Assembly (NCBI GenBank): GCA_965222605.1
Contig: OZ244960.1
Coordinates: 3,104,001-3,168,000 of the forward strand
DNA: 64,000 nt
Reading direction: 5' to 3'
Source of the DNA: Candidatus Latescibacterota bacterium
Lineage (GTDB): Bacteria; Latescibacterota; UBA2968
This document shows positions 1 through 48,095 of the stretch, piece by piece. The stretch's first letter is position 1. Each line of letters starts with the position of its first letter. The notes under the pieces are model-generated. The model searched no databases, was not told where the DNA came from, and saw nothing but the letters and a program-made list of their open reading frames with translations. The position numbers were made by a program, and so were the translations under genes.

Positions 1-681
1 GACATATGTAAAAAAGGGACGATAAGCACCCGTGGGCTGCCATATAGACCACCTGTTGGCCAGATTGCCTTTTGGGGTAGCGGTCAGGCAATCGAAATAA
101 AAGGTCGAGTTGGGCAGAAAGTCGCGCACAATACCCGTCACAAAATATGTGCCCGTACCGCTCAGTTCCTGGTGATCCACTTGCAGTACTTTCCCTATCG
201 GATTCTGGTTTTGAAAGAACTTGTGTGCCATTGATTCCGTTAGCACCATCGAACCCGGCTGGGTCAATGCCGTGGCTGGATCACCGGTTACAAACGGGAT
301 TGTAAATACATTGAAAATTTCTCGGTCTGCCACACACACGTCTTGCTGCAAAAAGTGGTTGTCAGTTTTGACCCATGCGGTAAGCAGTCGTGTGCGGATG
401 GCTTCCTGCACTTCGGGGAAATCGCGCTTTAATGCCGGTGCCAATGCGCCAGATGCACGCGGACTGACCGATGTTGTATTCTCCATTGAAACTGAGCGGA
501 AGATGCGATAAATGCGGGTTGCATTGACATGGTGTTGGTCGTAGCTAAACTCGTACTGAATGTAGAGGGCGATCAAAATTACAGACGCCATCCCAATTGC
601 CAGGCCCAGAATATTAATTGCTGTCAATCCCCTGTTTTTTAGCAGGGTGCGAATGGTGGCTGTGAGATAACTGCGAAACAT
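1..681 (-). CDS. MacB/FtsX-type ABC permease, 5' part (runs off window); near-identical to the 5' end of 3160-5640
   Basis: ATG at 681; nucleotide sequence almost identical to 4960-5640 (MFRSYLTATIRTLLKNRGLTAINILGLAIG...). Missing from ORF track because it is truncated by the window edge. Confidence 0.9.
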   Translation of the reverse strand, partial: MFRSYLTATIRTLLKNRGLTAINILGLAIGMASVILIALYIQYEFSYDQHHVNATRIYRIFRSVSMENTTSVSPRASGALAPALKRDFPEVQEAIRTRLLTAWVKTDNHFLQQDVCVADREIFNVFTIPFVTGDPATALTQPGSMVLTESMAHKFFQNQNPIGKVLQVDHQELSGTGTYFVTGIVRDFLPNSTFYFDCLTATPKGNLANRWSIWQPTGAYRPFFTYV

Positions 682-709
682 ACCGATCTCCTGATGCCGT
701 TTTCAACGA

Positions 710-770
710 GGGTTAGTATCCCGGCAGCGCCGAAAATACCGATGCCCAATTCAATGCGATACGCGAAAGG
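710..770 (-). pseudogene. Remnant of a permease C-terminus
   Basis: Reads FAYRIELGIGIFGAAGILTL, matching the conserved FAYRIELGIG motif at the end of the array permeases; no upstream gene body. Confidence 0.6.
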
Positions 771-854
771 GTGAATGTATAAAAATAGTAAGCAATAGAT
801 CCGCCCACCGACAAGTATGATTCCATTGGCCGAGACAAAAGTCAAGAAGGTCAT

Positions 855-5661: not shown

Positions 5662-8106
5662 CTATTCATCTCGCAAAGAATCCGCCGGGTTTGCGCGTGC
5701 TGCTTTGAGGGTCTGGGTGGTGACGGTTGTGAGTACGATGAGGAACAGGATAAGGCTACCGAGTAAGAATGCGCCAATACCCAATTCGGTGCGGTAGGCG
5801 AAGGTTTGTAACCATTGATTTGTCGCGTAATAGGCGATTGGAAATGCGATGAGGCTTGATAGGGCGATGTAGAGGACAAATTCTCGTGAGAGCAGGGATA
5901 AGATTTGGGTCTGGGATGCACCCAGGACTTTGCGAATGCCGATTTCTTTGGTGCGTCTTGCAGTGGCGAGTGCAGCCAGTCCGAATGCGCCGAGTGCGGC
6001 GATGAAGATGGCGAATCCGGTGGCGTATTGGATCATGAGGTTCCAGCGTTCTTCTTTATGGTATTGTCTGTCTATGTTTTCATCGAGAAACGAAAATCTG
6101 AATGTTAGTGCTGGTGCGATTTCTTTCCATTTTTCTTTCATAAATGCGATGGTGCCCGGCACATTTTCAGGGTGAATGCGAACCAACAAGTGAGAATGGT
6201 CCGTTGTAAAGAGGGGCATGATAACAGGTCCAATTTTGTGATGCAAAGAGCGAAAATGAAAGTCGCGCACGACGCCAATGATCGTCTTGGACCGGGAAAT
6301 AATACGCTTTTCGCGCGGATTATTTCTTTGCGAGACTTTTCGGACCTCTTTGATCGTTTTGCCAATTGGGTTTTCTATACCCAATTTCTCGACCAAAGCC
6401 TCGTTGACGATAATTGATTTTCTTTGATCGGTTGGAAATTCCTCAGAATATTCCCGACCCGCAACGAGTTTCATGCCGAGTGTCTTGAACACATCGTAAC
6501 CAATGGACATCATTTCAACTGGCTGATCTTGAATGTCTTCATAATTTACAAAAATATTAGGGGGACGCGGAAACGCGAACTCACTGCTGTATAAATCGTT
6601 ACCATTAAACCAGGTTGTGCTGATCACTGAGGGATGAGATTGCAGCGCATCCCGAAAAACAGTGGGTAGGTTTCTGTATTCTCCTCGCCTCAAGACCATT
6701 TCAAAGGTCGAAATGGAGACGAGGTATTCGGTCTGGTATCCCAGGGGTTGGGTTCGCAAAAAAGCGAGTTGTTTGCCTATCATCAAGGTGGCGATGATGA
6801 AGAATATGGATAGGGCAAACTGAAAAATGACGAGTACTTTGCCAAAACGATTGCCCGTTTTAATTTGCAGTCTGCTCGTTATGATTTGGGTCGGCTGCAA
6901 TCGGGACAGGACAAAAGCGGGATACCCTCCTGCTGTGATGCCGACGAGACTGACCAGAAGAATGAGAAAGGCGAGTGTTGTGAGATTGAGACCGTCGCTC
7001 AAGGATAGAGATGTTATGCGTAAGGTTTGTCCGATTAAGTTGTTGAATGTAGGTAGCGCGAGTTCTGCGATGGCAATGCCTGCGATGCACGCGATGATGA
7101 TGAGTAAGAGCGATTCGCCGATAAATTGTTTTGCAATCTGCATGCGCCCTGCGCCAACGACTTTTCGCAGGCCGACTTCTCGCGCTCGCGTTGCCTGTCT
7201 GCCGAGGGTTAAAGTGATAAAGTTGACACAGGCAATAAATAGCACGAGTAGTGCTATGCCCGATAGGATGTACGTATAAATGGGGTTGCTGGCATTCGAG
7301 GTCTGAAGAATTGGATCAAAGTGCATTTGCGTGAGTGGCTGAAGTTTGAGTTGGTTCTCGCTCTTTTCGCTCCACCAGATTTTGGTCCATTTGGGAAATT
7401 GTTGTTCAAGGCTATTGGGATTAACATTTGGCGGGAGCAGCATATACGTATCCGCCTTGAAGTGTTTATTGTCTGCTACCCCGCTTTGTTCAAAGGGCAG
7501 TAGCATGTCAAATTTAAGTGTAGAGTTTTTGGGCACGTTTTTCAGAATGCCCGTGACGGTGTAATTTTTAATTTCGTTTTTACGCAGCATGGGATTGAAA
7601 CGCTGAATGGGTAGCACCTCGCCAATCGCATTGGCATCTTTGAAATACTTTTGAGCAATTCTTTCTGTTATAAGTGCGGAGTAATTGTCTTGAAGATCAG
7701 ACTTACCACGAATGACTGGAAATGAAAAGATTTCGAGGAAGTTGGGATCGACATAACTCCACAAGGCTCGAAACGCGTGATCGTCTGTGCCAATTTTTCC
7801 AAATCCCACCGCTAAACGAGCCGTCTGCATCTCGGGGAATGCCTCCGTCAGTGCCGCGCTGTCAAGGACTCGGGGTTCTTCTGCAATCCCGGATGGCGTC
7901 TGTACATAAACCCGATAGATGCGGTCGGCGTTTTCGTGAAAGGTGTCGTAGGTCCATTCGTGGTGGACAAAGAGGAATGTGATAATGCAGAATGCGAGAC
8001 CGATGGCAATGCCGATGATGTTGATGGCTGAGTAGATGCGGTGTCTGGCGAGGTTGCGGATCGCTGTTTTCAGGTAGCTACTGAATAAAGACATTTCACC
8101 GAACAT
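5662..8106 (-). CDS. MacB/FtsX-type ABC permease, subfamily A
   Basis: Start moved to ATG 8106 (AGGAG RBS; MFGEMSLFSSYLKTAIRNL matches paralogs); same permease motifs. Confidence 0.95.
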   Translation of the reverse strand: MFGEMSLFSSYLKTAIRNLARHRIYSAINIIGIAIGLAFCIITFLFVHHEWTYDTFHENADRIYRVYVQTPSGIAEEPRVLDSAALTEAFPEMQTARLAVGFGKIGTDDHAFRALWSYVDPNFLEIFSFPVIRGKSDLQDNYSALITERIAQKYFKDANAIGEVLPIQRFNPMLRKNEIKNYTVTGILKNVPKNSTLKFDMLLPFEQSGVADNKHFKADTYMLLPPNVNPNSLEQQFPKWTKIWWSEKSENQLKLQPLTQMHFDPILQTSNASNPIYTYILSGIALLVLFIACVNFITLTLGRQATRAREVGLRKVVGAGRMQIAKQFIGESLLLIIIACIAGIAIAELALPTFNNLIGQTLRITSLSLSDGLNLTTLAFLILLVSLVGITAGGYPAFVLSRLQPTQIITSRLQIKTGNRFGKVLVIFQFALSIFFIIATLMIGKQLAFLRTQPLGYQTEYLVSISTFEMVLRRGEYRNLPTVFRDALQSHPSVISTTWFNGNDLYSSEFAFPRPPNIFVNYEDIQDQPVEMMSIGYDVFKTLGMKLVAGREYSEEFPTDQRKSIIVNEALVEKLGIENPIGKTIKEVRKVSQRNNPREKRIISRSKTIIGVVRDFHFRSLHHKIGPVIMPLFTTDHSHLLVRIHPENVPGTIAFMKEKWKEIAPALTFRFSFLDENIDRQYHKEERWNLMIQYATGFAIFIAALGAFGLAALATARRTKEIGIRKVLGASQTQILSLLSREFVLYIALSSLIAFPIAYYATNQWLQTFAYRTELGIGAFLLGSLILFLIVLTTVTTQTLKAARANPADSLRDE

Positions 8107-8177: not shown

Positions 8178-8295
8178 GCAATTCCTGTGCCAAATTATTC
8201 TTTTCTATATTTTACAAGTAGTTATGAAAATTTGTGTCATGAAGGCAGTTCAATAAGTGTCCGATTTTGATACAGTGGTGTCCGAAAATGAACAC
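8178..8295 (-). promoter_or_regulatory. sigma54 promoter + IHF-like site + tandem enhancer dyads (copy 1)
   Basis: Minus strand TGGCACAGGAATTGC (8192-8178) = TGGCAC-N5-TTGC; TTACAAGTAGTTA at 8212-8224; GTGTCCGATTTTGATACA and GTGTCCGAAAATGAACAC at 8257-8295. Confidence 0.85.
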
Positions 8296-9303: not shown

Positions 9304-10017
9304 TTAAAGACTCAGGCGTTCTCGAAATTTTTGTGCCTGACGTCGGGAAATTTCAATTTCATAGCCCCCTTTCAACAACACTTTTAGGCTGCCTTGAAAC
9401 CAGGGCTCAATTTTTTCGATATACTGTAAATTGATAATTTGTTGGCGATTGACACGAAAAAATATGCGTTTGTCCAAACGCTCTTCAAGGTGGTTGAGAG
9501 TACGCGGAATAAGAGGTTTGAATTTTTGAAAATAGACCCGCGTGTAATTACCAGAAACTTCGAATAATTGAATGTCTGAGAGTTTGATAAACCAGCACTG
9601 ATCACCGTCTTTTACAAAAACGCGACTCGAATCGGTCAATGCCAGTGCAACAGCTTCATCGGAAGAAGGCGTTTGGGCTTGTAGTTTTTCAATCGCGCTT
9701 GCAAGGCGTTCAGGCTGAACAGGTTTTAGCAAGTAATCGAGCGCATTTACTTCAAAAGCCCGAATGGCATATTCGTCATAGGCGGTTGTAAAAATCACCT
9801 GTGGTACCTGGTCAAGGGTTTCAAGCAGTTCAAAACCGTCTTGCCCGGGCATCTGAATATCGAGGAATATTACATTGACCGATAACCTTTTGAGTTGCTG
9901 CCGTGCTACATCTGCATTTGCGGCTTCACCTACTACTGTGATGGCCTCAAAGGCTTTGAGCAAATGTTTTAACTCCTGACGGGCAAGTCGTGAATCATCG
10001 ACGATCAATGCATTCAT
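9304..10017 (-). CDS. LytTR-family response regulator
   Basis: REC domain (IVDD, FLDIQMP, FTTAYDEYA, YLLKP) + LytTR domain (FFRVNRQQIIN, EISRR). Confidence 0.95.
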   Translation of the reverse strand: MNALIVDDSRLARQELKHLLKAFEAITVVGEAANADVARQQLKRLSVNVIFLDIQMPGQDGFELLETLDQVPQVIFTTAYDEYAIRAFEVNALDYLLKPVQPERLASAIEKLQAQTPSSDEAVALALTDSSRVFVKDGDQCWFIKLSDIQLFEVSGNYTRVYFQKFKPLIPRTLNHLEERLDKRIFFRVNRQQIINLQYIEKIEPWFQGSLKVLLKGGYEIEISRRQAQKFRERLSL

Positions 10018-11087: not shown

Positions 11088-11094
11088 ATTGTAC

Positions 11095-37070: not shown

Positions 37071-37077
37071 TTAATAC

Positions 37078-37113
37078 AAAAAACAGGCACATTGTTTTGA
37101 TTTCAATGTGCCT
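37078..37113 (-). terminator. Intrinsic terminator (copy 2)
   Basis: AGGCACATTG/CAATGTGCCT stem followed by a T-run on the minus strand. Confidence 0.7.
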
Positions 37114-37220
37114 AATAATAGCTAATTTTTTTGATCCAATAAGTTCGCGTTCAAGTATCCAATTGGTCCCAATCTGGTGGGGTAAGGAACATGACTACAC
37201 TGCTGGTATTTTTAGTATGC

Positions 37221-37916: not shown

Positions 37917-40268
37917 TCATTCATCTCGCAGGGCATCCGCCGGGTTTGCGCGTGCGGCTTTGAGGATCTGGGACGTGACAGTTGTGAGTACGACGAGGAA
38001 CATGGCTATGCTGCCGAGCAAGAAGGCACCCATGCCCAATTCAGTGCGATAGGCGAAGGTTTGTAACCATTGATTGGTCGCGTAATAGGCGATAGGGAAT
38101 GCGATGAGGCTTGATAGGGCGATGTAGAGGACAAATTCTCGTGAGAGCAGGGATAAGATTTGGGTCTGGGATGCGCCCAGGACTTTGCGAATGCCGATTT
38201 CTTTGGTGCGTCTGGTTGTGGCGAGTGCAGCCAGTCCGAATGCGCCGAGTGCGGCGATGAAGATGGCGAATCCGGTGGCGTATTGGATCATGAGATTCCA
38301 GCGTTCTTCTTTTTTGTATTGTTTGTCTAAGTCTTCATCGATGAATGAAAAGTTGAATGCGTGGTTGGGTGTGACTTTTTCCCACTGTTCTTTGATAAAT
38401 GCGATGGTGCCCGGTACATTTTCGGGGCGAATGCGAACCAACAAGCGTCCGGTGTATGTGCTGAGTGGCAGGACAGCGGGCGCAACTTTGTGATGCAGGG
38501 AGCGAAAATGGAAATTTTGAACAACGCCGATGATGGTTCTGTTTTTTGAGCCACTGTATCTGATTGTTTTGCCAACGGGATCTTCTATGCCGAATTTTTG
38601 GACGAGTGCCTCGTTGACAATGACCGCTTCTTTGGCGTCGGTTGGAAATTCTCTGTCGTATTCTCGACCTGCAACGAGTTTTATGTCGAGTGTTTTGAAC
38701 AGGTCGTAGTCAATACTAATACCTTCAACGGGTTGCTCTGGCTCTCCTTGATATGTTACATAGGTTGACAAACTCATGTCGTTGTTTAGAGGATGGTTAA
38801 GCCATGTTGTGCTGATCACGGCATGATGAGACAGCAGGGCATCCCGAAAAACCGTTTCTGTGGTTTTGTTTTCTTTTTTTAAGTCTCTGGTCGAAATGGC
38901 GACAACGTGTTCGGTTTGATATCCCAGGGATTGGGTTCGCAAGAATGTGAGTTGGTTGTTCATCATCAGGGTGGTGATGATGAAGAATATGGATAGGGCA
39001 AACTGAAAAACGATTAATACGTTGCCAAAACGATTGCCTGTTTTCATTTGCAATTTGCTCGCGATGATTTGGGTCGGCTGCAGGCGGGATAGCACAAAGG
39101 CGGGATAACCTCCTGCTGTGAAGCCAACGAGGCTGACAAGGAGAATGAGAAAAGCGAGAGTTGTGGGATTGAGACCGTCGGCCAGGGCAAGGGATTTTCC
39201 AGATAGGTTATTGAATGTTGGCAAGGCGAGTTCTGCGATGGCAATGCCAGCGATGAGTGCGATGAAGATGAGTAAGAGTGATTCTCCGATAAATTGGTTT
39301 GCGATTTGCATGCGCCCTGCGCCGACGACTTTTCGCAAGCCGACTTCTCGTGCCCGCGTTGCCTGCCTGCCGAGGGTCAGGGTGGTGAAGTTGACACAGG
39401 CGATAAATAGGACGAGGATTGCAATGCCCGATAAGATGTATGAGTAAACTGGATTACTGCGACGGCTTACATACATGGTTTGATCAAAGTGTATTTTGGT
39501 GAGTGGTTGAAGTTTGATCTGGTTCTCGCGCTTTTCGTCCCACCAGTTTTTGGTCCATTTGGGAAATTGCTGTTCGAGACTGTTTGGGGATATATTCGGG
39601 GGGAGCATCATGAAAGTAAATATGCTGTAGAAATCCCATCTGTCTTCGATCTTACTTTGTTCAAAGGGTAGTAGTACGTCAAACTGAATTGTGGAGTTTT
39701 TGGGCACGTTTTGCACAACGCTTGTGATGGTGTAATCTTGAATTTCATTTTTGTATTCAATGGGAAGCACTGCTCCGACGGGGTTGGCATTGTTGAAATA
39801 TTTCTGAGCGGTTTTTTCTGTTATGAGTGCGGAATATTTGTCCTGGAGTGCATTCGCAGGGTCGCCTTGAATGATTGAAAAAGAGAAAATGTCGAGAAAA
39901 TTGGGATCGGTAAAACCCAATTTTGTCCGAAAAGCGCGATTTTCTGTTCCAATTTTCCCCGTGCGAGATGTGAAACGAACCGTTTGCATGTCGGGGAATG
40001 CTTCTGTTATTGCGGGTCCGAGAGGGCCAGGTGTTACACCGTGAACGCGCTCGTTTCGCCCCTTTATGTAAACTCGATAGATGCGGTCGGCGTTTTCGTG
40101 AAAGGCGTCGTAGGTCCATTCGTTGTAGGTAAAGAGGAAGGTGAGGATACAAAAGGCGAGGCCAATGGCAATGCCGGTGATGTTGATGACCGAGTAGATG
40201 CGGTGCCTGGCGAGGTTGCGGATTGCCGTTTTCAGGTAGTTACTGAATAATGACATTTCAACGAACAT
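37917..40268 (-). CDS. MacB/FtsX-type ABC permease, subfamily A
   Basis: 783 aa; permease motifs; AGGAG RBS. Confidence 0.95.
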   Translation of the reverse strand: MFVEMSLFSNYLKTAIRNLARHRIYSVINITGIAIGLAFCILTFLFTYNEWTYDAFHENADRIYRVYIKGRNERVHGVTPGPLGPAITEAFPDMQTVRFTSRTGKIGTENRAFRTKLGFTDPNFLDIFSFSIIQGDPANALQDKYSALITEKTAQKYFNNANPVGAVLPIEYKNEIQDYTITSVVQNVPKNSTIQFDVLLPFEQSKIEDRWDFYSIFTFMMLPPNISPNSLEQQFPKWTKNWWDEKRENQIKLQPLTKIHFDQTMYVSRRSNPVYSYILSGIAILVLFIACVNFTTLTLGRQATRAREVGLRKVVGAGRMQIANQFIGESLLLIFIALIAGIAIAELALPTFNNLSGKSLALADGLNPTTLAFLILLVSLVGFTAGGYPAFVLSRLQPTQIIASKLQMKTGNRFGNVLIVFQFALSIFFIITTLMMNNQLTFLRTQSLGYQTEHVVAISTRDLKKENKTTETVFRDALLSHHAVISTTWLNHPLNNDMSLSTYVTYQGEPEQPVEGISIDYDLFKTLDIKLVAGREYDREFPTDAKEAVIVNEALVQKFGIEDPVGKTIRYSGSKNRTIIGVVQNFHFRSLHHKVAPAVLPLSTYTGRLLVRIRPENVPGTIAFIKEQWEKVTPNHAFNFSFIDEDLDKQYKKEERWNLMIQYATGFAIFIAALGAFGLAALATTRRTKEIGIRKVLGASQTQILSLLSREFVLYIALSSLIAFPIAYYATNQWLQTFAYRTELGMGAFLLGSIAMFLVVLTTVTSQILKAARANPADALRDE

Positions 40269-40294: not shown

Positions 40295-42724
40295 TTACTC
40301 ATATCGCAGTGCATCAATCGGGTTAGAACGCGCTGCGCGAATGGCTTGCGTGCTCACGGTTCCAAATGCGATGATCAGAGCCATTATCGCGCTTGCAACA
40401 AATGGCAATACATTCAGGTCTGTCTGATAGGCAAACCCGGAGAGCCAGTTGTGCATTAGATAGTAGGCAATTGGCCAGGCGATGCCGTTGGCGAGAAGAA
40501 CGAGGAATATAAATTCGCGCGAGAGTAGCATCACCAGATGTGGTGTGGATGCGCCCAGGACCTTCCGCACGCCAATTTCTTTGGTGCGAGATTGAACCAT
40601 AAACGCGGCCAGTCCAAACAGTCCCAAACACGCTACAAAAATTGCGAGCAACGAAAATATCCCGAGCATTTTGCCGGTGAGTTGTTCGTTGAAATAGACC
40701 CAATCAATGATCTCGTCCATGAAGTGATATTCAAAGGGCGCGTCCGGTACAAAGCGTTTCCACTGTGTTTCGAGAAAGGACAGGGTTTGCGCAGTGTTTT
40801 CTGGTCGGATGCGCAGGACCAGCGAATAAAACATCTTCCAGCGGGCCAAAAATCCCATGGGGGCTATTTCTTCTCGTAGTGTCAAATTGTGGTAATCTTT
40901 TACGACCCCAATTACTATCAGGGATAGGTTGTCATATGCTGGTAACACAATCTGTTTGCCAATCGGATCGTCCTCCCAGCCGAGCAGGCGCACGGCTGTT
41001 TCGTTCAAAATAATCGCCTGAGAGGTATCGCTGGCAACATCGGCTGAAAAGGCGCGACCGCGAAGCACGGGAATATCAAATGTTTCAAAGAATGAATCAT
41101 CGACCTCGTTTATGCGAAATGTCCGTTCTTTTGTGGGGTCCCCATCGGGCCAGGCCAGTCGCAGTCGTCCGCTGTATCCCGTAATGTTGTATCGCAGTGC
41201 CGACGCGCTGAGGATATTGGGATGTTCGAGAAAGACCTGTTTGACCATAAGGTGGCGTGCCGAAAGACGTTTTTGTGGGTTGGATTCTTTCGAAAAATCG
41301 CGGACAAAGATCGGCAAACTCACAATGTGATCGCGTGCAAAACCCATCTCTTTGGTTTCTATAAATCTCAGTTGTTGATAAACTATTAGGGTGCAGATTA
41401 CCAGCAAAATGGACATGCCAAACTGAAAAACCACGAGTCCTTTCTTCAGCCCATTGGAACCCGATGAGGAAGATGCACTGCTTTTTAATGCTGTTACCGG
41501 GCTAAAAGAGGAGAGGAAAAATGCCGGATACCATCCCGCCAGCAATCCGACTGCTAATGTTAGTGCCAATACCGCTGGCGCACCTGCCATAACCATAGCC
41601 GCGTTGAGGTGCAGATCGCCGCGCACAAATTGGTTGAATAAGGGCAGGCATAACTCGACCAGTGCGAGGGCAATCAGCAGGGCGGAACAGGTTAAAAGCA
41701 GGGATTCAGTTAAAAATTGAACCACCAATTGTGGACGATGCGCGCCAACCACTTTTCGCACACCTACTTCGCGCTTGCGGGTGACAGCGCGTGCAGTTGC
41801 CAGATTTGTAAAGTTCACGCATGCAATGACCACTACGATTAGTCCGATAGCCGTTAGCATGTAAATTTTTTGAATGGGGCTGTCGGCAGTTGGGTTAAAA
41901 TCGGATTCGCCATACAGGTACATGCGGTGCAGGGGCTGCAAATAGTAGGTGTTTTTTTTCGCAACTTCATCCCCCATATACTGTTTGATCAACGGCTGCA
42001 TTTTCGTTTGTAGGATTTCTGCGTTTTGTCCTGCTTTTAATAGCACAAAGGTTTTTACCGGACGCCACGATTGCGTGGGTCGCCATAGTGTCCACACCTC
42101 TTGCGTTTCTTCTACGGGCGTCAGAGTGGTTGAGAGTATTTCAAAATAAAGGCCTGATGAGAGATGTGGTGCTTTTACGATGCCGGTGACTGTGTACTCG
42201 CCAGGGAAACTGACGTTGTCGATTGAGAATGTTTGGCCCATTGGGTCAATATCGCCAAATAAGTGTTGCGCCATGTCGTCGGTAATGACTACAGAGTAGG
42301 GCGTGCGAAACGCAGTCTCTAAGTCTCCTTTTATAAGGGGAAAATCAAATACGTCTAAAAAGTTGTCATCTACCAGTCCGAACTGATATTGACCCTCGCG
42401 CTCGCCGTATTGTGCAGATACAGTCCATCGCCAGATACGCACGGTTGTTTCTACTTCGGGAAATGTTTCTTCCAACACGGGACCGAGTGCGCCTGATGTA
42501 CCTTCTGTGTATGATGTTTGCGTACTGCCGCGTTGTTCCCGAATCACTTTGTAAATGCGGTCGCCCAGGGTGTGGGAGCGATTTACTGCAAATTCCTGTT
42601 GGATATACAAGAGGATCAAAATGCCACACGCTAACCCAATGGCAAGTCCCAATACATTGATGGAGGTGTACAATTTGTGCCGCATCAGATTGCGGATCGC
42701 AACGGTCAGATAATTTTTGATCAT
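40295..42724 (-). CDS. MacB/FtsX-type ABC permease, subfamily B (only intact copy)
   Basis: 809 aa; MIKNYLTVAIRNLMRHKLYTSINVLG. Confidence 0.95.
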   Translation of the reverse strand: MIKNYLTVAIRNLMRHKLYTSINVLGLAIGLACGILILLYIQQEFAVNRSHTLGDRIYKVIREQRGSTQTSYTEGTSGALGPVLEETFPEVETTVRIWRWTVSAQYGEREGQYQFGLVDDNFLDVFDFPLIKGDLETAFRTPYSVVITDDMAQHLFGDIDPMGQTFSIDNVSFPGEYTVTGIVKAPHLSSGLYFEILSTTLTPVEETQEVWTLWRPTQSWRPVKTFVLLKAGQNAEILQTKMQPLIKQYMGDEVAKKNTYYLQPLHRMYLYGESDFNPTADSPIQKIYMLTAIGLIVVVIACVNFTNLATARAVTRKREVGVRKVVGAHRPQLVVQFLTESLLLTCSALLIALALVELCLPLFNQFVRGDLHLNAAMVMAGAPAVLALTLAVGLLAGWYPAFFLSSFSPVTALKSSASSSSGSNGLKKGLVVFQFGMSILLVICTLIVYQQLRFIETKEMGFARDHIVSLPIFVRDFSKESNPQKRLSARHLMVKQVFLEHPNILSASALRYNITGYSGRLRLAWPDGDPTKERTFRINEVDDSFFETFDIPVLRGRAFSADVASDTSQAIILNETAVRLLGWEDDPIGKQIVLPAYDNLSLIVIGVVKDYHNLTLREEIAPMGFLARWKMFYSLVLRIRPENTAQTLSFLETQWKRFVPDAPFEYHFMDEIIDWVYFNEQLTGKMLGIFSLLAIFVACLGLFGLAAFMVQSRTKEIGVRKVLGASTPHLVMLLSREFIFLVLLANGIAWPIAYYLMHNWLSGFAYQTDLNVLPFVASAIMALIIAFGTVSTQAIRAARSNPIDALRYE

Positions 42725-42771: not shown

Positions 42772-45099
42772 TTACTCATCTCTCAAAGCGTCCGCCGGGT
42801 TTGCGCGTGCGGCTTTGAGGGTCTGGGTGGTGACGGTTGTGAGTACGACGAGGAACATGGCCAGACTGCCGAGTAAGAAGGCGCCAATACCCAATTCGGT
42901 GCGGTAGGCGAAGGTTTGTAACCATTGATTGGTCGCGTAATAAGCGATAGGGAATGCGATGAGGCTTGATAGGGCGATGTAGAGGATAAATTCCCGCGAG
43001 AGCAGGGATAAGATTTGAGATTGCGATGCGCCCAGGACTTTGCGAATGCCAATTTCTTTGGTGCGTCTGGTAGTGGCGAGTGCCGCCAGTCCAAATGCGC
43101 CGAGTGCAGCGATGAAGATGGCGAATCCTGTGGCGTATTGGATCATGAGATTCCAGCGTTCTTCTTTTTTGTATTGTCTGTCTATGTTTTCATTGAGAAA
43201 CGAAAATCTGAATGCATGGTCGGGGGCGACTTCAGCCCATTTTTCTTTTATAAATGCGATGGTGCCCGGCACGTTTTCGGGGCGAATGCGGACTAATAAG
43301 CGTACGGTAATTGCACGGAGGGATAGAACGGCGGGTTCAACTTCGTGATGCAAAGAGCGAAAATGGAAATTTTGAACAACGCCAATGATGGTCTTGTCTC
43401 GTCCATGTTTGATTGTTTTGCCAACGGGATCTTCTATGCCGAGTTTTTTGACGAGTGCTTCGTTGACAATGATTGATTTTTTAGCATCTGTTGGAAATTC
43501 TCTGTCGTATTCTCGACCTGCAACGAGTTTGATGTCGAGTGTTCTGAACAAATCGTAATCAATGTAGATGTTCTCAACGTATTGCCTTGGATTTCCTTCA
43601 TAAGTCACATCAGCCCGGGAACTCATGGTGTTTGTAAAATAATGATTAAGCCAGGTTGTGCTGATCACTGAGGGATGTGACAGCAGGGCATCCCGAAAAA
43701 CGTTTGGAAAGGTTTTGCTTTCTCTTTCCAGTGCATGGGTCTGAATGGCGACAACATGTTCGGTTTGATACCCCAGTGGTTGGGCTCGCAGGAATGTGAG
43801 TTGTTTGCTCATCATCAAGGTGACAATGATGAAAAATATGGATAGGGCAAACTGAAAAATGACCAGTACTTTGCCAAAACGATTGCCCGTTTTAATTTGC
43901 AACCGGCTTGTTATGATTTGGGTTGGCTGCAGGCGGGATAGGATAAAGGCGGGATACCCCCCTGCTGTGATGCCAACGAAGCTGACCAGGAGAATGAGGA
44001 AGGCGAGTGTTGTGGTGTTGAGGCCGTCGCTCATGGATAGGGATTTATCAGCCAGATTGTTGAATGTTGGCAACGTGAGTTCTGCTATGGCAATGCCAAT
44101 GATGAGCGCGATGAAGATGAGCAAGAGGGATTCGCCGATAAATTGGTTTGCAATCTGCATGCGTCCCGCGCCGACGACTTTTCGCAAGCCGACTTCCCGC
44201 GCCCGCGTTGCCTGTCGTCCGAGGGTCAGGGTGATGAAGTTGACACAGGCGATAAACAGGACGAGGATTGCAATGCCCGATAAGATGTATGAATAAACTG
44301 GATTGCTGCTATTATATACCCCCAGGCTTTGAGCGAAATGCATTTGGGTGATAGGTAGGAGTTTGAGTTCTTTCTCGCTTTTTTCGCCCCACCAGATTTT
44401 GGTCAATCTGGGAAATTGTTGTTCGACACTATTTGGGGATACATTCGGGGGGAGCATCATATACGTAGTCAGGTAGTGCGTATTCCATTGGTTTTTGGCC
44501 TGGACCCAGGATGCCCGTTCAAATGGCAGCAGTACGTCAAATTGAATTGTGGAGTTTTTGGGCACGTTTTTTATAATGCCCGTGATGGTGTAGTTTTGAA
44601 TTTCCTCTCCGCGTTGAATAGGAAGCAGTTCTCCAACCGGATTGGCGTTGTTGAAATACTTTTGAGCAATTTTTTCTGTTATGAGTGCTGAATATTTGTC
44701 CTGGAGTGCTTGAGCGGGATCGCCGTGAATGACTGAGAAAGAAAAAATGTCGAGGAAGTTGGGATCGACAACCCCCAAATGCGCTTGAAAAGCGAGATCT
44801 TCTGTACCAATTTTTCCCCCGGTACTCCTGAAACGAACGGTCTGCATGTCTGGGAATGCTTCTGTTAATGCGGGTCCGAGGGGATCTGGTGTTATACCAG
44901 AAACCCGATAGATGCGGTCGGCGTTTTCGTGAAAGGTGTCATAAGTCCATTCGTTGTGGACAAAGAGGGAGGTGAGGATGCAAAAGGCGAGGCCGATGGC
45001 AATGCCAATGATGTTGATGGCAGAGTAGATGCGGTGCCTGGCGAGGTTGCGGATCGCTGTTTTCAGGTAGCTACTGAGTAAAGATATTTCAGAGAACAT
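42772..45099 (-). CDS. MacB/FtsX-type ABC permease, subfamily A
   Basis: 775 aa; permease motifs. Confidence 0.95.
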   Translation of the reverse strand: MFSEISLLSSYLKTAIRNLARHRIYSAINIIGIAIGLAFCILTSLFVHNEWTYDTFHENADRIYRVSGITPDPLGPALTEAFPDMQTVRFRSTGGKIGTEDLAFQAHLGVVDPNFLDIFSFSVIHGDPAQALQDKYSALITEKIAQKYFNNANPVGELLPIQRGEEIQNYTITGIIKNVPKNSTIQFDVLLPFERASWVQAKNQWNTHYLTTYMMLPPNVSPNSVEQQFPRLTKIWWGEKSEKELKLLPITQMHFAQSLGVYNSSNPVYSYILSGIAILVLFIACVNFITLTLGRQATRAREVGLRKVVGAGRMQIANQFIGESLLLIFIALIIGIAIAELTLPTFNNLADKSLSMSDGLNTTTLAFLILLVSFVGITAGGYPAFILSRLQPTQIITSRLQIKTGNRFGKVLVIFQFALSIFFIIVTLMMSKQLTFLRAQPLGYQTEHVVAIQTHALERESKTFPNVFRDALLSHPSVISTTWLNHYFTNTMSSRADVTYEGNPRQYVENIYIDYDLFRTLDIKLVAGREYDREFPTDAKKSIIVNEALVKKLGIEDPVGKTIKHGRDKTIIGVVQNFHFRSLHHEVEPAVLSLRAITVRLLVRIRPENVPGTIAFIKEKWAEVAPDHAFRFSFLNENIDRQYKKEERWNLMIQYATGFAIFIAALGAFGLAALATTRRTKEIGIRKVLGASQSQILSLLSREFILYIALSSLIAFPIAYYATNQWLQTFAYRTELGIGAFLLGSLAMFLVVLTTVTTQTLKAARANPADALRDE

Positions 45100-45151
45100 T
45101 GGTCTCTCCTGTTTATGGTGTGAAATAAACTTTGTATTTCAGCAGGTGCAG

Positions 45152-45733
45152 TCAGCCCGCCCAACCCCCGACCTGTTGTTTTTCCAACGCGCGTTTTAAC
45201 TGATGGCGTCCTCGGTAGAGCCAGATTTTCACTGTGCCGAGGGGGACTTGCATTTCCCACACGATTTCGCGGTAGGACAGTTCTTTTATGTAGCGAAGCC
45301 ACATTGCGCGTTGTTGTACTTTGGGCAATGTGCGTAAGCCCTGTGTTAAGAGTTGATGGCGTTCCTTTTGTATGACGCTATCTTCTGGCGTTGTCAGAGT
45401 AATTGGTTCGGGCATTTGTTGTGCTGCGGTTTGCAGACCATTTTTTCGGGATAGTCGAGACCGAAGGTGTGATCGCCCGACGTTGAAGGCAATGCGCGTT
45501 AGCCAGGTTGTGAATGCCGAGTCGCCGCGAAAATGGCGCAGGCCCTGAAAGACTTTCATGAATACCACCTGGATCAAGTCATCGGCTTCCTCGCGGTCCT
45601 GCACATATCGCCCGACAATGGCGCGTACGCGATTCTGGTGCAGATAGTAGAGTTTGCCAAACGCGCTTTCGTCGCCGGCTTTTATCATGAGGATCAATTG
45701 TACATCGTTTTCTATGTCTGATCGTTTATTCAT
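45152..45733 (-). CDS. ECF sigma-70 factor
   Basis: Region 2 (AFGKLY...DLIQVVF...FRGDSAFTTWLTRIA) and region 4 (LSYREI...VPLGTVKIWLYRGR); overlaps the upstream permease stop. Confidence 0.92.
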   Translation of the reverse strand: MNKRSDIENDVQLILMIKAGDESAFGKLYYLHQNRVRAIVGRYVQDREEADDLIQVVFMKVFQGLRHFRGDSAFTTWLTRIAFNVGRSHLRSRLSRKNGLQTAAQQMPEPITLTTPEDSVIQKERHQLLTQGLRTLPKVQQRAMWLRYIKELSYREIVWEMQVPLGTVKIWLYRGRHQLKRALEKQQVGGWAG

Positions 45734-48095
45734 ACCGCAGTGCCTCCACGGGGTTCATTTTTGCCGCTTTCACAGCTTGCAGGCTCACTGTTCCGATTAC
45801 GACCAATAGTGTCAGTACACCGCCCAGCACGAACGCTCCAATCCCCAGCTCAATCCGATACGCGAAGTCCGATAGCCATTTGCTCATTGCCCAGTAGGCG
45901 ACTGGCCAGGCGAGTACATTTGCAATGGCTACCAGCAGAACGAATTCGCGCGATAGCAAACTCACGACGTTTGTGATGCTGGCGCCCAATATTTTGCGAA
46001 TGCCAATCTCTTTGGTGCGCCGGGTTACGGCGAGTGCTGTCAATCCAAATGCTCCCAGACACGCTATAAAAATGGCAAATAGGGTTCCGTATCCGATCAT
46101 GCGATGCCATCGCTCTTCGGTTCGGTATTGGCGATCGATGCCTTCGTCGAGGAATGAATAACGGAATTCAGGGGATTGTGTTATGGCTTCCCATTGTTCT
46201 TTCATAAATGACAGTGTGCCGGGGATATCTTCGGCATGCACCCGGATCAGCAGTCGGCTAAAGTATTGATTTGCTGGGTCGCATTTCAGGAGTGCGGGGC
46301 CAATTTTGTGATGGAGAGAGCGAAAATGAAAATCTTTCACGACGCCAATCACTGTCATATCAGTAAAAAATTTCAGTGTTTTGCCGAGCGGTGGTCCCGG
46401 TCCCAATTGCCTGGCCAGGGTTTCATTGATAATTACAGATGCAGCAGGGTCTGTTACAAATTCTCGTGAATAATTTCGCCCTTCGATCAATTTGATGTCG
46501 AGGGTTGGTACAAAGTCATAATCGACAAAGAAGACCTCCACGCCGCTTAAGCTCGTTCCATCATGTACCACATTCCCGCGCGACTGGTATCCATTGCGCA
46601 TCATGTGATATATTGGGGTTACACCGAGAATTGCGTGATGGGATAACAGGGCGTCCCGATAGGTTTCAATGCCTTTTGGTCCCAGGTCTCGCAGCTTGCT
46701 GAGGCGACTGACGGCAATCAAATGTTCGCTGTCAAATCCCAGGGGTTTGGTCCGCAAATAGTCGAGTTGAGAGGTCATGATGAGGGCACAGATGACCAGA
46801 ACCGCAGACATCGCGATCTGGAAGACTACGAGAAACTGGCTGAATAATCCCGCACTGACAATTTTCAATCTGCCTTTGAGTACGTGAATTGGCATGAAGC
46901 CGGAGAGGACAAAGGCTGGATAGGTGCCTGCAAGCAGGCCGATGATCAAAGTTAGACCCATTAGCGAGGCAAATGCCGGACCATCCAGATGTGCAACCAA
47001 AGATAGTTTTTGCGCCATGAGGTTGTTGAACAATGGCAGTAAAAGTTCTGATAGGGCGAGTCCGATCACAAAGGCTATGAGGCTCAAGAGAACGGATTCT
47101 GTGAGAAATTGTACAATGACCTGGGGCTTGTGTGCGCCAACGACTTTGCGTATGCCGATTTCCCGCGCCCGAGAAGCCGATCGTCCCAGAGCGAGGGTCA
47201 TAAAGTTCACGCAGGCGACAAATAGTACGAGAGCTGTAATGCACAACAGGATGTAGCTGTATGCCGGGTCCGTGGCGGATTCGGGTGCGCGGATATTTGG
47301 ATTGAAATGGACATCTGCAAGCGGCTGCAACTTCATCTCATGGTTTTCACCCATGATGGGCCACTTCCAGTTTAAAAGAAAACGCGGAAATGACTTTTCC
47401 AGGTCTTCGGCGCGAACCTGATTGTGAAGCAAGACGTAAGTACTGGTGTCACTTATGTAATTCCACGAGTTGAGCGCGTCTTCGACATTCTCATAGGACT
47501 GAATGCAGTCGAATTGAATGCTGGATGTTTCGGGGATGTCTTTTACGATGCCTGTAATCAGAGCCTGATGGATTTTTGAGTTTCTTGTGAAAGAGATCGA
47601 TTTCCCCATTGGGTCGGTGTTGCCGAAGAATTTTTGAGCGGCTGTTTCTGATATAATAATGGCGTCTTTGCGATTTAGTGCTGTTGCGGGGTCGCCTTTT
47701 ATCAGGGGAAATGAGAATACATCCCAGAAATCCGGATCGACATAAATAATGCGTTCTTGAAATGAATGGTCGCCATATTGGAGTGTGAGAGAAGTGGTGT
47801 TAATTCTCACGACGTGCTGCATTTGTGTGGGGAATGCTTCTGCCAACTTTGGACCGAGAGGACCCGGCATGGCAGCTGAGGCATCGCTGCCTTCGCCTAC
47901 TTCTCCTTTATTGTAAATGCGATAAATCCGATTTGCTTTTTCGTGGAATGCGTCAAAGGACCATTCGTGTCGTATGTACAAGAATGTCAAGATGCAAAAC
48001 GCAATGCCGATTGCCAGGCCAGTAATGTTAATCGCCGAATACACTTTGTAGCGGACGAGATTGCGGTACGCCACGGTCAGATAGTTGCGGAACAT
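45726..48095 (-). CDS. MacB/FtsX-type ABC permease
   Basis: 789 aa; permease motifs; AAGGAG RBS. Confidence 0.95.
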   Translation of the reverse strand: MFRNYLTVAYRNLVRYKVYSAINITGLAIGIAFCILTFLYIRHEWSFDAFHEKANRIYRIYNKGEVGEGSDASAAMPGPLGPKLAEAFPTQMQHVVRINTTSLTLQYGDHSFQERIIYVDPDFWDVFSFPLIKGDPATALNRKDAIIISETAAQKFFGNTDPMGKSISFTRNSKIHQALITGIVKDIPETSSIQFDCIQSYENVEDALNSWNYISDTSTYVLLHNQVRAEDLEKSFPRFLLNWKWPIMGENHEMKLQPLADVHFNPNIRAPESATDPAYSYILLCITALVLFVACVNFMTLALGRSASRAREIGIRKVVGAHKPQVIVQFLTESVLLSLIAFVIGLALSELLLPLFNNLMAQKLSLVAHLDGPAFASLMGLTLIIGLLAGTYPAFVLSGFMPIHVLKGRLKIVSAGLFSQFLVVFQIAMSAVLVICALIMTSQLDYLRTKPLGFDSEHLIAVSRLSKLRDLGPKGIETYRDALLSHHAILGVTPIYHMMRNGYQSRGNVVHDGTSLSGVEVFFVDYDFVPTLDIKLIEGRNYSREFVTDPAASVIINETLARQLGPGPPLGKTLKFFTDMTVIGVVKDFHFRSLHHKIGPALLKCDPANQYFSRLLIRVHAEDIPGTLSFMKEQWEAITQSPEFRYSFLDEGIDRQYRTEERWHRMIGYGTLFAIFIACLGAFGLTALAVTRRTKEIGIRKILGASITNVVSLLSREFVLLVAIANVLAWPVAYWAMSKWLSDFAYRIELGIGAFVLGGVLTLLVVIGTVSLQAVKAAKMNPVEALRYE

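Follow-up and report, generated by a model that had tools for sequence, protein, structure and literature searches.

The permease array and its neighbouring genes

The window, the whole 64-kb stretch of DNA analysed here, contains 14 loci of internally duplicated MacB_PCD/FtsX (type VII ABC) permeases between positions 1 and 48095, all on the minus strand (Table 1). Pfam found MacB_PCD and FtsX in every locus listed by the first-pass annotation, and a tblastn search with the intact B copy returned all 14 places and no further ones. The co-oriented array described there is thus borne out, and as loci its 14 paralogs are real, but only ten are intact genes (ORFs of 775-866 aa); one is cut by the window edge and three have decayed, by a 5-nt deletion, by an inserted IS66-family element that duplicated 8 bp of its target (CTTCTTTT) and by a 2.2-kb deletion. 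Since three of the 14 loci are decayed, single permease copies appear to be dispensable. These pseudogenes, the IS element, the sigma-54 control elements and a pair of ABC half-transporters had been overlooked. The row of permeases is interrupted at 8.2-16.1 kb by genes of other kinds, including one on the plus strand.

All-against-all BLASTP reproduced the earlier scheme of four subfamilies and two singletons. Identity was 69-80% within subfamily A (P3, P7, P11, P13), 85-95% within B (P5, P6, P10, P12), 73% within C (P4, P8) and 93% over 227 aa in D (P1, P2). The singleton P9 showed 25-29% identity to the full-length paralogues and 35% to the short remnant at 36643 (P10), and P14 showed 44-47% to subfamily A. 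The recurrence of A-B pairs also held: an A permease precedes a B permease at three places (42772 and 40295, 37917 and 36643, 28885 and 24795).

Table 1. Features of the permease array, adjoining genes and predicted control regions (window coordinates)
Feature	Position	Strand	Evidence and remarks
P1 (D)	1..681	-	N-terminal 227 aa only, gene leaves window; MacB_PCD; 93% identical to P2
TPR + GWxTD-domain protein, between P2 and P1	855..3179	-	Pfam TPR_19; NCBIfam GWxTD_dom, 52 bits (cut-off 28)
P2 (D), intact, 826 aa	3160..5640	-	Profile matches, BLASTP
P3 (A), intact	5662..8106	-	Start ATG at 8106; Pfam, BLASTP
Unit 3 control region (predicted)	8178..8294	-	TGGCAC-N5-TTGC at 8178-8192; tandem enhancer-like site 8258-8294
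LytTR response regulator and LytS-type histidine kinase	9304..11144	-	Regulator 9304-10017, kinase 10014-11144; Pfam
P4 (C), intact, 800 aa	16116..18518	-	Pfam, BLASTP
P5 (B), pseudogene	18590..21089	-	5-nt deletion near 19445 causes frameshift; both halves otherwise open
Two ABC_membrane+ABC_tran half-transporters, 609 and 619 aa	21109..24785	-	MsbA/type I secretion-like, not LolD-type (Pfam, NCBIfam)
P6 (B), split	24795..28817	-	24795-26538 and 28103-28817; interrupted by IS66-family element
IS66-family element, 1564 bp	26539..28102	-	Transposase 26547-28016; perfect 14-nt inverted ends
P7 (A), intact	28885..31299	-	Pfam, BLASTP
P8 (C), intact	31719..34094	-	Pfam, BLASTP
P9 (singleton), intact, 803 aa	34109..36520	-	Pfam, BLASTP; orthologue L004 12471
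P10 (B), remnant	36644..36924	-	Last 281 nt only; 2.2-kb deletion fuses remnant to own leader
Unit 2 control region (predicted)	36925..37114	-	Sigma-54 promoter 36953-36967; tandem enhancer-like site 37033-37069; hairpin and U-run 37078-37114
P11 (A), intact	37917..40268	-	Pfam, BLASTP
P12 (B), 809 aa, sole intact B copy	40295..42724	-	Profile matches, structure model
P13 (A), intact	42772..45099	-	Pfam, BLASTP
ECF sigma factor, 193 aa	45152..45733	-	Start overlaps P14 stop by 8 nt; profile matches
P14 (singleton), intact	45726..48095	-	Pfam, BLASTP
TlpA/ResA-like thiol-disulfide oxidoreductase, 478 aa, first gene of unit 1	48140..49576	-	Pfam, NCBIfam
Unit 1 control region (predicted)	49698..49814	-	Sigma-54 promoter 49698-49712; tandem enhancer-like site 49778-49814

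The absence of a stand-alone ATPase, adaptor or TolC gene from the window, stated earlier, was upheld by HMM and Pfam searches. Our own ABC-domain HMM, run over all window ORFs of at least 80 aa, detected no soluble ABC ATPase and matched only the two fused proteins at 21109-22938 and 22926-24785; HMMs made from related-locus genes and Pfam revealed neither an HlyD adaptor nor an OEP duct in the 64 kb.

An accessory role had been proposed for the TlpA and TPR-GWxTD genes, and it found little support. TlpA is missing from that place in two relatives (L002, L004), but redoxin genes adjoin permeases in L040, L057 and L075; the TPR-GWxTD gene occurs in no relative examined, and the start of its product is uncertain because the ATG at 3179 falls within the end of P2. 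The ECF sigma gene, which has no anti-sigma gene behind it in the window, is kept behind the P14-type permease in L002 and L004. The LytTR/LytS-type pair, a possible second regulator, is kept between arrays in L002; in L004 and L003 the hydrolase that precedes its position is visible and the next ORF is cut by the locus ends.

Permease fold and conserved helices

Pfam placed MacB_PCD and FtsX twice in each full-length permease, and the chain is internally duplicated, with the series TM1-PCD-TM2-coupling helix-TM3-TM4 occurring two times. P12, modelled with AlphaFold2 (pLDDT 90.5, pTM 0.86), has eight TM helices and two periplasmic domains, with no extra cytoplasmic domain of the signalling type. 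Its top full-length fold match was E. coli YbbP of YbbAP (E 1e-18, TM 0.50), followed in order by MacB, Spr0694-0695, LolE, YtrF and BceB. In E. coli, ybbA adjoins ybbP. Sequence identity to YbbP is 14-15%, and the NCBIfam YbbP model matched P4 and P8 only, with 24-27 bits against a cut-off of 999. The available part of the structural account describes YbbAP as a single-chain pseudosymmetric type VII permease that holds two soluble ATPase copies through two coupling helices, and gives YbbP an extra TM helix pair (PDB 9ge6; PMC12646458); the P12 model has eight TM helices.

Like MacAB-TolC, the window permeases are built on a 4-TM unit with a periplasmic core domain and with a major and a minor coupling helix, and in related loci such permeases are likewise accompanied by HlyD-type adaptor and OEP duct genes. 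MacB, however, works as a homodimer whose chains carry their ATPase at the N-terminus, with a single gene per system, whereas here both halves lie in one chain, the ATPase is a protein of its own, and one adaptor and ATPase go with many permease genes.

The best-conserved parts are the helix after TM2, the helix after TM6 and the C-terminal helix, with 72%, 89% and 68% identity between subfamilies, against 29-30% in the periplasmic domains and 35-47% in the TM segments. Within subfamily A both coupling helices are 100% identical and the periplasmic domains 67-68%. According to the accessible portions of the reports on MacB and YbbP, these three helices contact the ATPase (PMC5985334, PMC12646458). 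In eight orthologue pairs, with orthologues from four other chromosomes, dN/dS was 0.11-0.27; these substitution ratios show purifying selection on the permease genes. The periplasmic domains gave 0.13-0.42, and thus no sign of positive selection.

Candidate partner genes and predicted control regions in related loci

The closest relatives of the window were Latescibacterota MAG chromosomes. In 17 of 75 related loci a soluble DarD/LolD-like ABC ATPase of 222-250 aa was encoded within 10 kb of the permeases, and 58 had none at that distance; an HlyD adaptor was present in 12 and an OEP duct in five. Two gene orders were typical, HlyD-ATPase followed by one to six or more permeases (L016, L026, L052, L056, L073) and several permeases followed by ATPase and OEP (L030, L032). 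The ATPase lay within two genes of 10 of the 52 visible array heads and of four of the 52 visible tails. Among the nine closest loci, eight (L001-L006, L040, L074) had no soluble ATPase, adaptor or duct within 10 kb; only L075, from Latescibacterota, had them. The L075 ATPase is 64-73% identical to HlyD-following ATPases of other phyla, whose permeases are 24-41% identical to P12. A 94% homologue of the L075 ATPase lies on a 5,865,457-bp contig that we infer from its length to be the chromosome of locus L005, and an 87% homologue on a 1,398,466-bp contig, apparently, again by length, the one with an 87% homologue of P12. There is an orthologue for each subfamily, but copy number and order vary among close relatives.

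The best NCBIfam names for these ATPases and adaptors were DarD and DarC, of the darobactin exporter DarBCD (NF038008, NF038010, NF038007), whose duplicated permease (777 positions) goes with a periplasmic adaptor and a soluble ATPase. DarBCD models were also second-best for most full-length permeases. All scores stayed below the cut-offs: permeases reached no more than 169 (cut-off 700), ATPases 251-305 (cut-off 375) and adaptors 167-178 (cut-off 450). Pfam found no radical-SAM or precursor gene in the window. DarBCD has a single permease per system and no array.

A tandem site, TCGGACAC-N13-TCGGACAC, occurs three times in the window against 0.02 expected; each copy is followed after about 65 nt by an exact TGGCAC-N5-TTGC and stands ahead of a permease unit. 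The hairpin with U-run in the unit 2 control region probably ends unit 1; another, at about 8301-8344, lies immediately upstream of the unit 3 control region. A looser pattern, composed after the sites had been seen, had 33 matches in 1.34 Mb (window and loci) and none in shuffled or reversed sequence. The next gene within 400 nt was a permease in 18 cases, HlyD in five and an ATPase in one; six had another gene (three a sigma-54 regulator divergent from HlyD, the others TlpA, orf123 of L075 and an AraC-type gene in L021), and three, the P10 remnant among them, had none. In L075 the site stands 84 nt before an orf123-ECF sigma-HlyD-ATPase operon, with a promoter one base off the TGGCAC-N5-TTGC consensus. 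Response regulators of the sigma-54 activator type are divergent from arrays in six loci, and at Bacteroidota array heads, read by eye, the -12 element deviates from TTGC. These motif matches predict at least three sigma-54-dependent, enhancer-controlled units in the window, composed mainly of the duplicated permeases, although the direct repeats could instead be bound by the adjacent LytTR regulator.

A proposed shared ATPase, its alternatives and related systems

This evidence suggests that many permeases share one separately encoded ATPase and are switched on together with it. Our best explanation, with a probability of about 0.6 that includes the three sigma-54 units, is a set of permease units under common sigma-54 control that serve a pump with a remote, shared ATPase. 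A soluble ATPase of the DarD/LolD/MacB type, with its gene at another place in the genome, would dock on each permease in two copies; with an HlyD-type adaptor and an outer-membrane duct, the permease could form an extrusion pump like MacAB-TolC or DarBCD. An unchanging cytoplasmic docking face would let the same motor fit every paralogue, and the diverged periplasmic domains would enable the set to act on a range of periplasmic or outer-leaflet substrates. On the common upstream site, an NtrC-type activator may turn on the permease units and the adaptor-ATPase operon at the same time. The array itself would change fast, through duplicated segments, deletions, inserted IS elements and probably gene conversion.

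When a complex of P13 and the L075 ATPase, a protein from another species, was predicted, the ipSAE was 0.33 against 0.00 for the best of three controls, with a partner pLDDT of 81 and agreement between runs in at least 90% of contacts. Of 157 solved complexes, 116 reached the mark used, as did two of 215 mismatches, and scores up to 0.60 comprised only 18 of the solved complexes and both mismatches. This hints weakly that P13 may dock an ATPase of the L075 type; as similar complexes have already been solved, the pass may reflect likeness only.

The permeases might instead be true orphans that act without an ABC ATPase, as envelope sensors, as scaffolds for periplasmic enzymes or with another energy source, which comes near the 'receptor' wording used earlier. 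The lack of an ATPase in the window, in eight of the nine closest loci and within 10 kb in most related loci agrees with this, as does the adjacency of regulators (the ECF sigma gene overlapping P14, the LytTR/kinase pair). However, the ATPase-contacting parts are the most conserved ones, permeases of the same kind stand directly behind an ATPase in 10 array heads, and the permease model has no added signalling domain. We consider orphan permeases unlikely, and nothing points to a receptor role.

Somewhat less probable still is that each permease or subfamily has its own remote ATPase, about one to one, with nothing shared. Related loci do encode two soluble ATPase classes ('head' copies with 64-73% identity to the L075 ATPase, 'tail' copies with 46-55%), and L018, L049 and L070 have two ATPases for one to three permeases. 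Fully visible headed arrays, however, have one ATPase per two or three permeases (L052, L064), L030 has one for five, and five to six permeases follow one ATPase up to the end of the fetched DNA in L016, L056 and L073; the docking helices, moreover, are invariant within subfamily A and differ little between subfamilies.

That the copies are decaying duplicates of little present function, or an assembly artefact, is very improbable. Broken loci, the IS element, toxin-antitoxin-like genes and repeated intergenic segments would fit, but ten ORFs remain open under the low dN/dS given above, the IS target duplication is clean, and the complete chromosome behind L004 has the same flanking genes (MFS gene, XendoU, hydrolase, kinase). 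Outside subfamily B the paralogues differ by at least 20%, so collapse or chimerism is unlikely.

We give even less credence to the idea that the two half-transporters lend ATPase domains to neighbouring permeases: they have a B-type permease close by on either side, at distances of 10 and 20 nt, and stand behind a B-type permease in L003 too, but the pair is absent from L001, L002 and L004, and the domains are fused to their own six-helix ABC_membrane domains, with best matches to MsbA and type I secretion exporters, type IV ABC exporters that are complete transporters on their own.

The array resembles ADOP (NCBIfam TIGR03434), first noted in Acidobacteria. ADOP proteins likewise combine two MacB_PCD-FtsX units in a single chain of some 800 aa; genomes contain numerous paralogues, and their genes have no ATPase gene alongside. 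ADOP was the top NCBIfam model for every full-length window copy, at 255-340 bits, far below the curated cut-off of 622. In Bacteroidota, a phylum other than the Latescibacterota studied here, the available parts of two accounts describe a 42-kb 'ADOP' cluster in Psychroflexus torquis, on its genomic island 43 (PMC3914696), and Dyadobacter genomes with 28-33 copies (PMC11573002). As in the window, a long cluster there has about ten paralogues interspersed with other transporters carrying ATP-binding regions, with transposases and pseudogenes, and with an addiction module. The proteins are abundant there, their function is left open, and neither control elements nor partner assignments nor an analysis of ATPase docking appear in those parts (PMC3914696, PMC11573002). 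The window units differ from ADOP in their host, which belongs to Latescibacterota and not to Acidobacteria, and in having no PadR gene in front and predicted sigma-54 control regions instead. In the related loci PadR precedes permeases only for the 858-898-aa forms (L009, L011, L021, L061, L069).

Composition of the array and class of its permeases

The ORF listing and the Pfam/NCBIfam searches revealed 14 minus-strand loci within 1–48095 (P1–P14, numbered by coordinate) that encode MacB_PCD-FtsX-MacB_PCD-FtsX permeases or fragments of them. The full-length ORFs as listed were 775–866 aa long, each with two PF02687 and two PF12704 domains above the Pfam cut-off. A tblastn search with the intact P12 recovered all 14 places and none extra. 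All-against-all BLASTP separated the copies into subfamilies A (P3, P7, P11, P13; 69–80% identity), B (P5, P6, P10, P12; 85–95%), C (P4, P8; 73%), and D (P1, P2; 93% over the 227 aa visible of P1). P9 and P14 were singletons, with 25–29% identity to the full-length paralogues and 44–47% identity to subfamily A, respectively. The array of 14 paralogues and the subfamilies proposed in the first-pass annotation were therefore reproduced exactly, and the corrections concern broken copies: of the four B copies, P5, P6, and P10 are dead (see the table).

In transcription order, the genes are a TlpA-like gene, P14, an ECF sigma factor, P13 (A), P12 (B), P11 (A), P10 (B), P9, P8 (C), P7 (A), P6 (B), two ABC half-transporters, P5 (B), and P4 (C). 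About 8 kb of unrelated genes separate P4 from P3 (A), P2 (D), a TPR-GWxTD gene, and P1 (D), which exits the window.

That annotation also stated that the window has no LolD/MacB-type ATPase, adaptor, or TolC gene, and the ABC-domain, HlyD, and OEP HMMs confirmed it. Among all ORFs of at least 80 aa, the only ABC-domain matches were the two half-transporters (ABC_membrane plus ABC_tran, of the MsbA/type I secretion kind), and HMMs built from the HlyD and OEP genes of related loci had no match in the window. No Rfam family at the gathering threshold and no tRNA gene were found there.

Coordinates of features in the window and in related loci (L001, L002, L004, L075)
Feature	Locus	Position	Strand	Remark
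P4 (C)	window	16116-18518	-	
P5 (B)	window		-	pseudogene: 5-nt deletion relative to P12 and P6
P6 (B)	window		-	split by an IS66-family element
IS66-family element in P6	window	26539-28102		1564 bp; perfect 14-nt inverted ends, 8-bp target duplication
P8 (C)	window	31719-34094	-	
P10 (B) remnant	window	36644-36924	-	final 281 nt only; a 2.2-kb deletion (vs the orthologous L004 region) fuses it to its own leader
P12 (B)	window	40295-42724	-	sole intact B copy
P13 (A)	window	42772-45099	-	
P14	window	45726-48095	-	
ABC half-transporters	window	21109-22938, 22926-24785		
ECF sigma genes	window	45152-45733		
ECF sigma genes	L002	6966-7547		
ECF sigma genes	L004	6323-6904		
ECF sigma genes	L075	13109-13729		
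LytTR regulator	window	9304-10017		
Exact TGGCAC-N5-TTGC	window	49698, 36953, 8178		
~300-nt segment	window	8831-9135, 37340-37644, 15891-16034		95% identity
~300-nt segment	L004	9358-9663		94% identity
P8-P7 gap segment	window	31300-31718		428-nt gap, 95% identical to the L001 segment
Small ORF in P8-P7 gap	window	31367-31714	+	
Gap-like segment	L001	17721-18010		adjoins a MazF/PemK toxin gene inside the array
Toxin-antitoxin-like modules	window	13225-14378, 62717-63699		
XendoU-family homologue	window	14776-15858	+	213 bits
Right flank	window	51552-59568		

The AlphaFold2 model of P12, built from a 120-sequence alignment (pLDDT 90.5, pTM 0.86), had two periplasmic domains and eight TM helices; TM2 and TM6 are each followed by a short helix, and a further helix forms the C terminus. 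Its top full-length structural match was E. coli YbbP in YbbAP (E 1e-18, TM 0.50), followed by MacB, Spr0694-0695, a P. gingivalis periplasmic domain (3is6), LolE, YtrF, BceB, and HrtB. The fold-match probability was 1.00 for MacB, LolE, and YbbP, and a profile search of PDB sequences agreed with these matches. By domains and fold, the window permeases are members of the type VII ABC (MacB/FtsX-fold) superfamily, carrying, twice, a four-helix FtsX unit with a MacB-like periplasmic core between TM1 and TM2.

Within this superfamily, the top NCBIfam model for every full-length copy was ADOP (TIGR03434), at 255–340 bits, below its cut-off of 622.3. DarB (NF038008), the permease of the darobactin exporter, came next, with at most 169 bits against a cut-off of 700, and YbbP (NF041854) matched only P4 and P8, with 24–27 bits against 999. 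Since all three cut-offs were missed, the arrays appear to be best described as orphan duplicated type VII permease arrays that belong to neither ADOP, DarB, nor YbbP. The ADOP family is of acidobacterial lineage and is linked to a PadR-type regulator. The window permeases share with it the internally duplicated unit and the lack of an adjacent ABC ATPase gene, but their closest kin are in Latescibacterota MAGs and Pfam found no PadR gene in the window. DarB belongs to a darobactin gene cluster, and the window has no radical-SAM gene. YbbP has ten TM helices and an adjacent ybbA, whereas the P12 model has eight and no ATPase is adjacent. As for a MacAB-TolC-type pump, HlyD lies beside homologous permeases in 12 of 75 related loci and OEP in five, but neither occurs in the window. 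None of the best 120 near-length P12 homologues had an ABC_tran domain; the search for longer, fused relatives (1417–4045 aa) found none, which is weak evidence of absence.

In Acidobacteria, Bacteroidota, and related phyla, few paralogous families are as large as the orphan duplicated type VII permeases. In Psychroflexus torquis, "ADOP" paralogues are reported to form arrays in which transposases, pseudogenes, an addiction module, and other ATP-binding transporters also occur, in a passage that leaves their function open (PMC3914696); a passage on high ADOP copy numbers in Dyadobacter does likewise (PMC11573002). The Latescibacteria genome paper nowhere mentions MacB, FtsX, or efflux (PMC4454575). 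The literature found assigns neither a function nor an energy source to these orphan permeases, and it contains nothing on arrays of several permeases headed by an ATPase, on sigma-54 control of such arrays, or on the occurrence of such genes in Latescibacteria.

Relatives and turnover of the permease repertoire

Scanning species-representative genomes with the alignment of the window paralogues gave 75 related loci (L001–L075). The closest were on Candidatus Latescibacterota MAG chromosomes, with permeases 73–93% identical to P12 and flanking genes identical in kind. The other loci, 29–44% identical to P12, comprised further Latescibacterota copies (L040, L074, L075) and loci from Ignavibacteriota, Aminicenantes, KSB1, and above all Bacteroidota. 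The labels Latescibacterota and Gemmatimonadota differ by submitter for near-identical proteins and loci, and one locus is titled Gemmatimonadota.

The frame of L004 matches that of the window (MFS gene, P14 orthologue, ECF sigma, permeases, then XendoU, hydrolase, and kinase), and within it L004 has five permeases versus 11 loci in the window. The window's pair of ABC half-transporters also lies behind a B copy in L003. In a tree of 222 full-length sequences, 8 of the 10 intact window copies had an orthologue in another Latescibacterota chromosome at a path length of 0.08–0.18; among these chromosomes, no neighbor was closer than 0.28 for P7 or 1.35 for P2, and the nearest permeases of other phyla were at 1.4–2.9. 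Given these orthologues and the differing arrays of the relatives, the subfamilies are old and stable, but copy number and order in the arrays are not.

Orthologue pairs had dN/dS values of 0.11–0.27, and therefore the permease genes are in use. The non-synonymous rate in the periplasmic domains was two to three times that of the rest, with dN/dS still well below 1. Between P4 and P8, dS was 2.18 in the periplasmic domains and 0.47 in the membrane and cytoplasmic parts; subfamily A showed a similar trend (0.49–0.76 vs. 0.34–0.43). This contrast suggests that the scaffold has undergone gene conversion or that periplasmic domains have been exchanged.

The first-pass annotation took the TlpA, ECF sigma, and TPR-GWxTD genes as accessory parts of the array. 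The start of the sigma gene overlaps the P14 stop by 8 nt, and its place beside the P14 type is kept in L002 and L004. TlpA is missing from the place before P14 in L001, L002, and L004, where the leader directly precedes the P14 orthologue; redoxin genes do stand directly before permeases in L040, L057, and L075. For the TPR-GWxTD gene an accessory role is unsupported; none of the loci examined has one. P14 was considered as the anti-sigma factor of the overlapping ECF sigma and rejected, since the model and the alignment show no cytoplasmic domain beyond a short N-terminal helix. ECF sigma genes with no visible anti-sigma gene were seen in the window, L002, L004, and L075; as they are embedded in putative sigma-54-driven units, a sigma cascade is implied.

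Putative docking face, candidate engine, and shared upstream site

The account of MacB describes contacts of the TM2-TM3 helix and the C-terminal helix with the ATPase (PMC5985334), and that of YbbP describes two coupling helices, each binding one YbbA (PMC12646458). The corresponding candidate contact parts were the most conserved regions of the window paralogues. Between subfamilies, identity was 72% in the first coupling helix, 89% in the second, and 68% in the C-terminal tail, as against 35–47% in the TM segments and 29–30% in the periplasmic domains. Within subfamily A the coupling helices were identical and the periplasmic domains 67–68% identical. The 120-sequence alignment gave the same pattern, and the alignments together with the P12 model placed a nearly invariant putative coupling helix between TM2 and TM3 of both permease halves.

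To find partners, the ORFs of all 75 loci were scanned with our own HMMs, and their neighbors with Pfam. A soluble ABC ATPase of 222–250 aa was present in 17 of the loci. The order HlyD, ATPase, and one to six or more duplicated permeases recurred in eight (L016, L023, L026, L027, L049, L052, L056, L073); the alternative, permeases, ATPase, and OEP, occurred in L018, L030, and L032. In six loci (L023, L026, L027, L049, L059, L073), a sigma-54 activator response regulator was divergent from the array. An ATPase lay within two genes of the array at 10 of 52 visible heads and 4 of 52 visible tails; therefore most arrays are orphan, like those of the window. The best NCBIfam models were DarD for the ATPases and DarC for the adaptors, both below cut-off.

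In the Latescibacterota locus L075, an operon that includes no permease gene, orf123-ECF sigma-HlyD-ATPase, is found 0.2 kb behind a duplicated permease, and a redoxin gene stands before that permease. The L075 ATPase is 64–73% identical to the ATPases that follow HlyD in other phyla, whose permeases are 24–41% identical to P12. The soluble ATPases fell into two classes: "head" copies behind HlyD, with this 64–73% identity, and "tail" copies behind permeases (before OEP in L018, L030, and L032), 46–55% identical to the L075 ATPase. The ATPase that heads the L064 array (53%) groups with the tail class; L018, L049, and L070 carry two ATPases, and the classes also concern L028, L030, L032, and L064. 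Toastrack proteins (DUF4097 or Toast_rack_N; L027, L033, L038, L072, L075) and DUF2807 proteins (L039, L049, L066) recur in other phyla, placed between or beside permeases, and may be further accessory parts.

A complex of window P13 with the L075 ATPase, which is from another species, was predicted with a weak ipSAE of 0.33 (runs 0.35, 0.33, and 0.31; best of three controls 0.00), a partner pLDDT of 81, and at least 90% contact agreement between runs. Among solved complexes, 116 of 157 attain the mark used, compared with 2 of 215 mismatches; among those past it, an ipSAE of 0.60 or less was seen in only 18 of the 157 solved complexes and in both mismatches. As like complexes are already solved, the score may reflect mere likeness to them.

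The 962-nt region that separates P11 from the P10 remnant is found again ahead of P3 and of TlpA, as well as ahead of permease genes in Latescibacterota loci. Alignment of 11 leaders showed an invariant block of ~43 nt with TCGGACAC twice, 21 nt apart (the tandem site), a conserved A/T-rich stretch, and an invariant GGCAC-N5-TTGC, which is the sigma-54 −24/−12 consensus. The exact TGGCAC-N5-TTGC occurs three times in the window, ~65 nt downstream of the tandem site in all three copies, and is kept in seven leaders of L001–L004 and L074. With one mismatch allowed, the promoter pattern had seven window matches against 5.7 expected, and therefore is not enriched by itself; the tandem site was observed three times against 0.02 expected. 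The paired elements head the units TlpA-P14-sigma-P13-P12-P11, P10 remnant-P9 with the following genes, and P3-P2-TPR-P1. Two of the tandem sites have a stable hairpin with a U-run immediately upstream (z −4.8 and −7.0); a sigma-70 and terminator consensus scan of 30–50 kb did no better than shuffles and missed these hairpins because of their 9-nt loops. No sigma-54 activator gene was found in the window, and its LytTR regulator is a possible alternative binder of the direct repeats.

A looser tandem pattern, written after the sites had been seen, gave 33 hits in 1.34 Mb of window and loci and none in shuffled or reversed sequence. Within 400 nt, the next gene was a permease in 18 cases, HlyD in five, an ATPase in one, and another gene in six: a sigma-54 regulator divergent from HlyD (three), TlpA, orf123 of L075, and an AraC-type gene of L021. 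One of the three hits with no gene in that distance belongs to the P10 remnant. The L075 hit lies 84 nt before its engine operon, with a one-mismatch promoter match in between. The strict sigma-54 consensus was present in the 300 nt before 3 of 12 HlyD genes; by eye, the Bacteroidota heads keep TGGCAC and vary in the −12 element. Given this distribution, orphan arrays, headed arrays, and the permease-less engine have one kind of upstream site in common, which is our strongest argument that they may work together.

A proposed common engine for many permeases, and the array surroundings

A shared motor combined with variable periplasmic domains is a plausible reading of these sequences, with specific support of an indirect kind, and one we lean toward. 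The receptor role that had also been proposed is unsupported, as nothing in the analysis points there. The full proposal, "one engine, many heads", goes further, and we give it about one chance in three (35%). One highly conserved adaptor-ATPase(-duct) engine would serve dozens of single-chain paralogues in trans, both in Latescibacterota and in other bacteria of the FCB group, and their induction would in every case start from one conserved sigma-54 enhancer. In its evolution, the set of permeases would resemble an innate defense repertoire: segmental duplication, loss, and IS hits would change the copy number, and gene conversion would hold the scaffold for membrane and docking uniform, with periplasmic domains that diverged long ago persisting, as the P4/P8 dS contrast suggests.

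If true, this proposal would account for the orphan ADOP-type permeases, long a puzzle, would reveal a new means by which an efflux machine widens its substrate range, and would bear on the resistance of soil and sediment bacteria to peptides and other envelope-active compounds. Orphan permease arrays are known to specialists; the link to an engine and a regulon makes the old question directly testable. It offers three handles. The putative docking face does not vary between paralogues; the soluble ATPase and adaptor are very conserved, heading arrays of several permeases in some genomes and standing alone elsewhere; and the common putative enhancer and promoter motif predicts that there is a single regulon.

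Several other elements accompany the arrays. A non-coding segment of ~300 nt lies behind A-type permease genes in the window and recurs in L004. It is more conserved than the synonymous sites of neighboring genes (dS 0.25–0.34), has no Rfam match, and its overlying small ORFs are not coding-like. The P8-P7 gap, similar to the L001 segment beside a toxin gene, contains a small plus-strand ORF only and no toxin gene. Toxin-antitoxin-like modules flank and interrupt the window arrays (PIN with DUF2442, Gp49/HigB-like with HTH_3, and an MqsA-like HTH), and the relatives' arrays contain MazF, HTH_37/Gp49, and PIN_3 genes. The XendoU family, to which one endoribonuclease homologue in the window belongs, is unusual in bacteria; L004 has the gene in the same place. 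Two PhyH dioxygenases are encoded on the right flank, together with a mandelate racemase/enolase-type enzyme, a GAF histidine kinase paired with a LuxR-type regulator, and a Rieske protein of 589 aa; the L002 array, too, has a PhyH gene at its flank.
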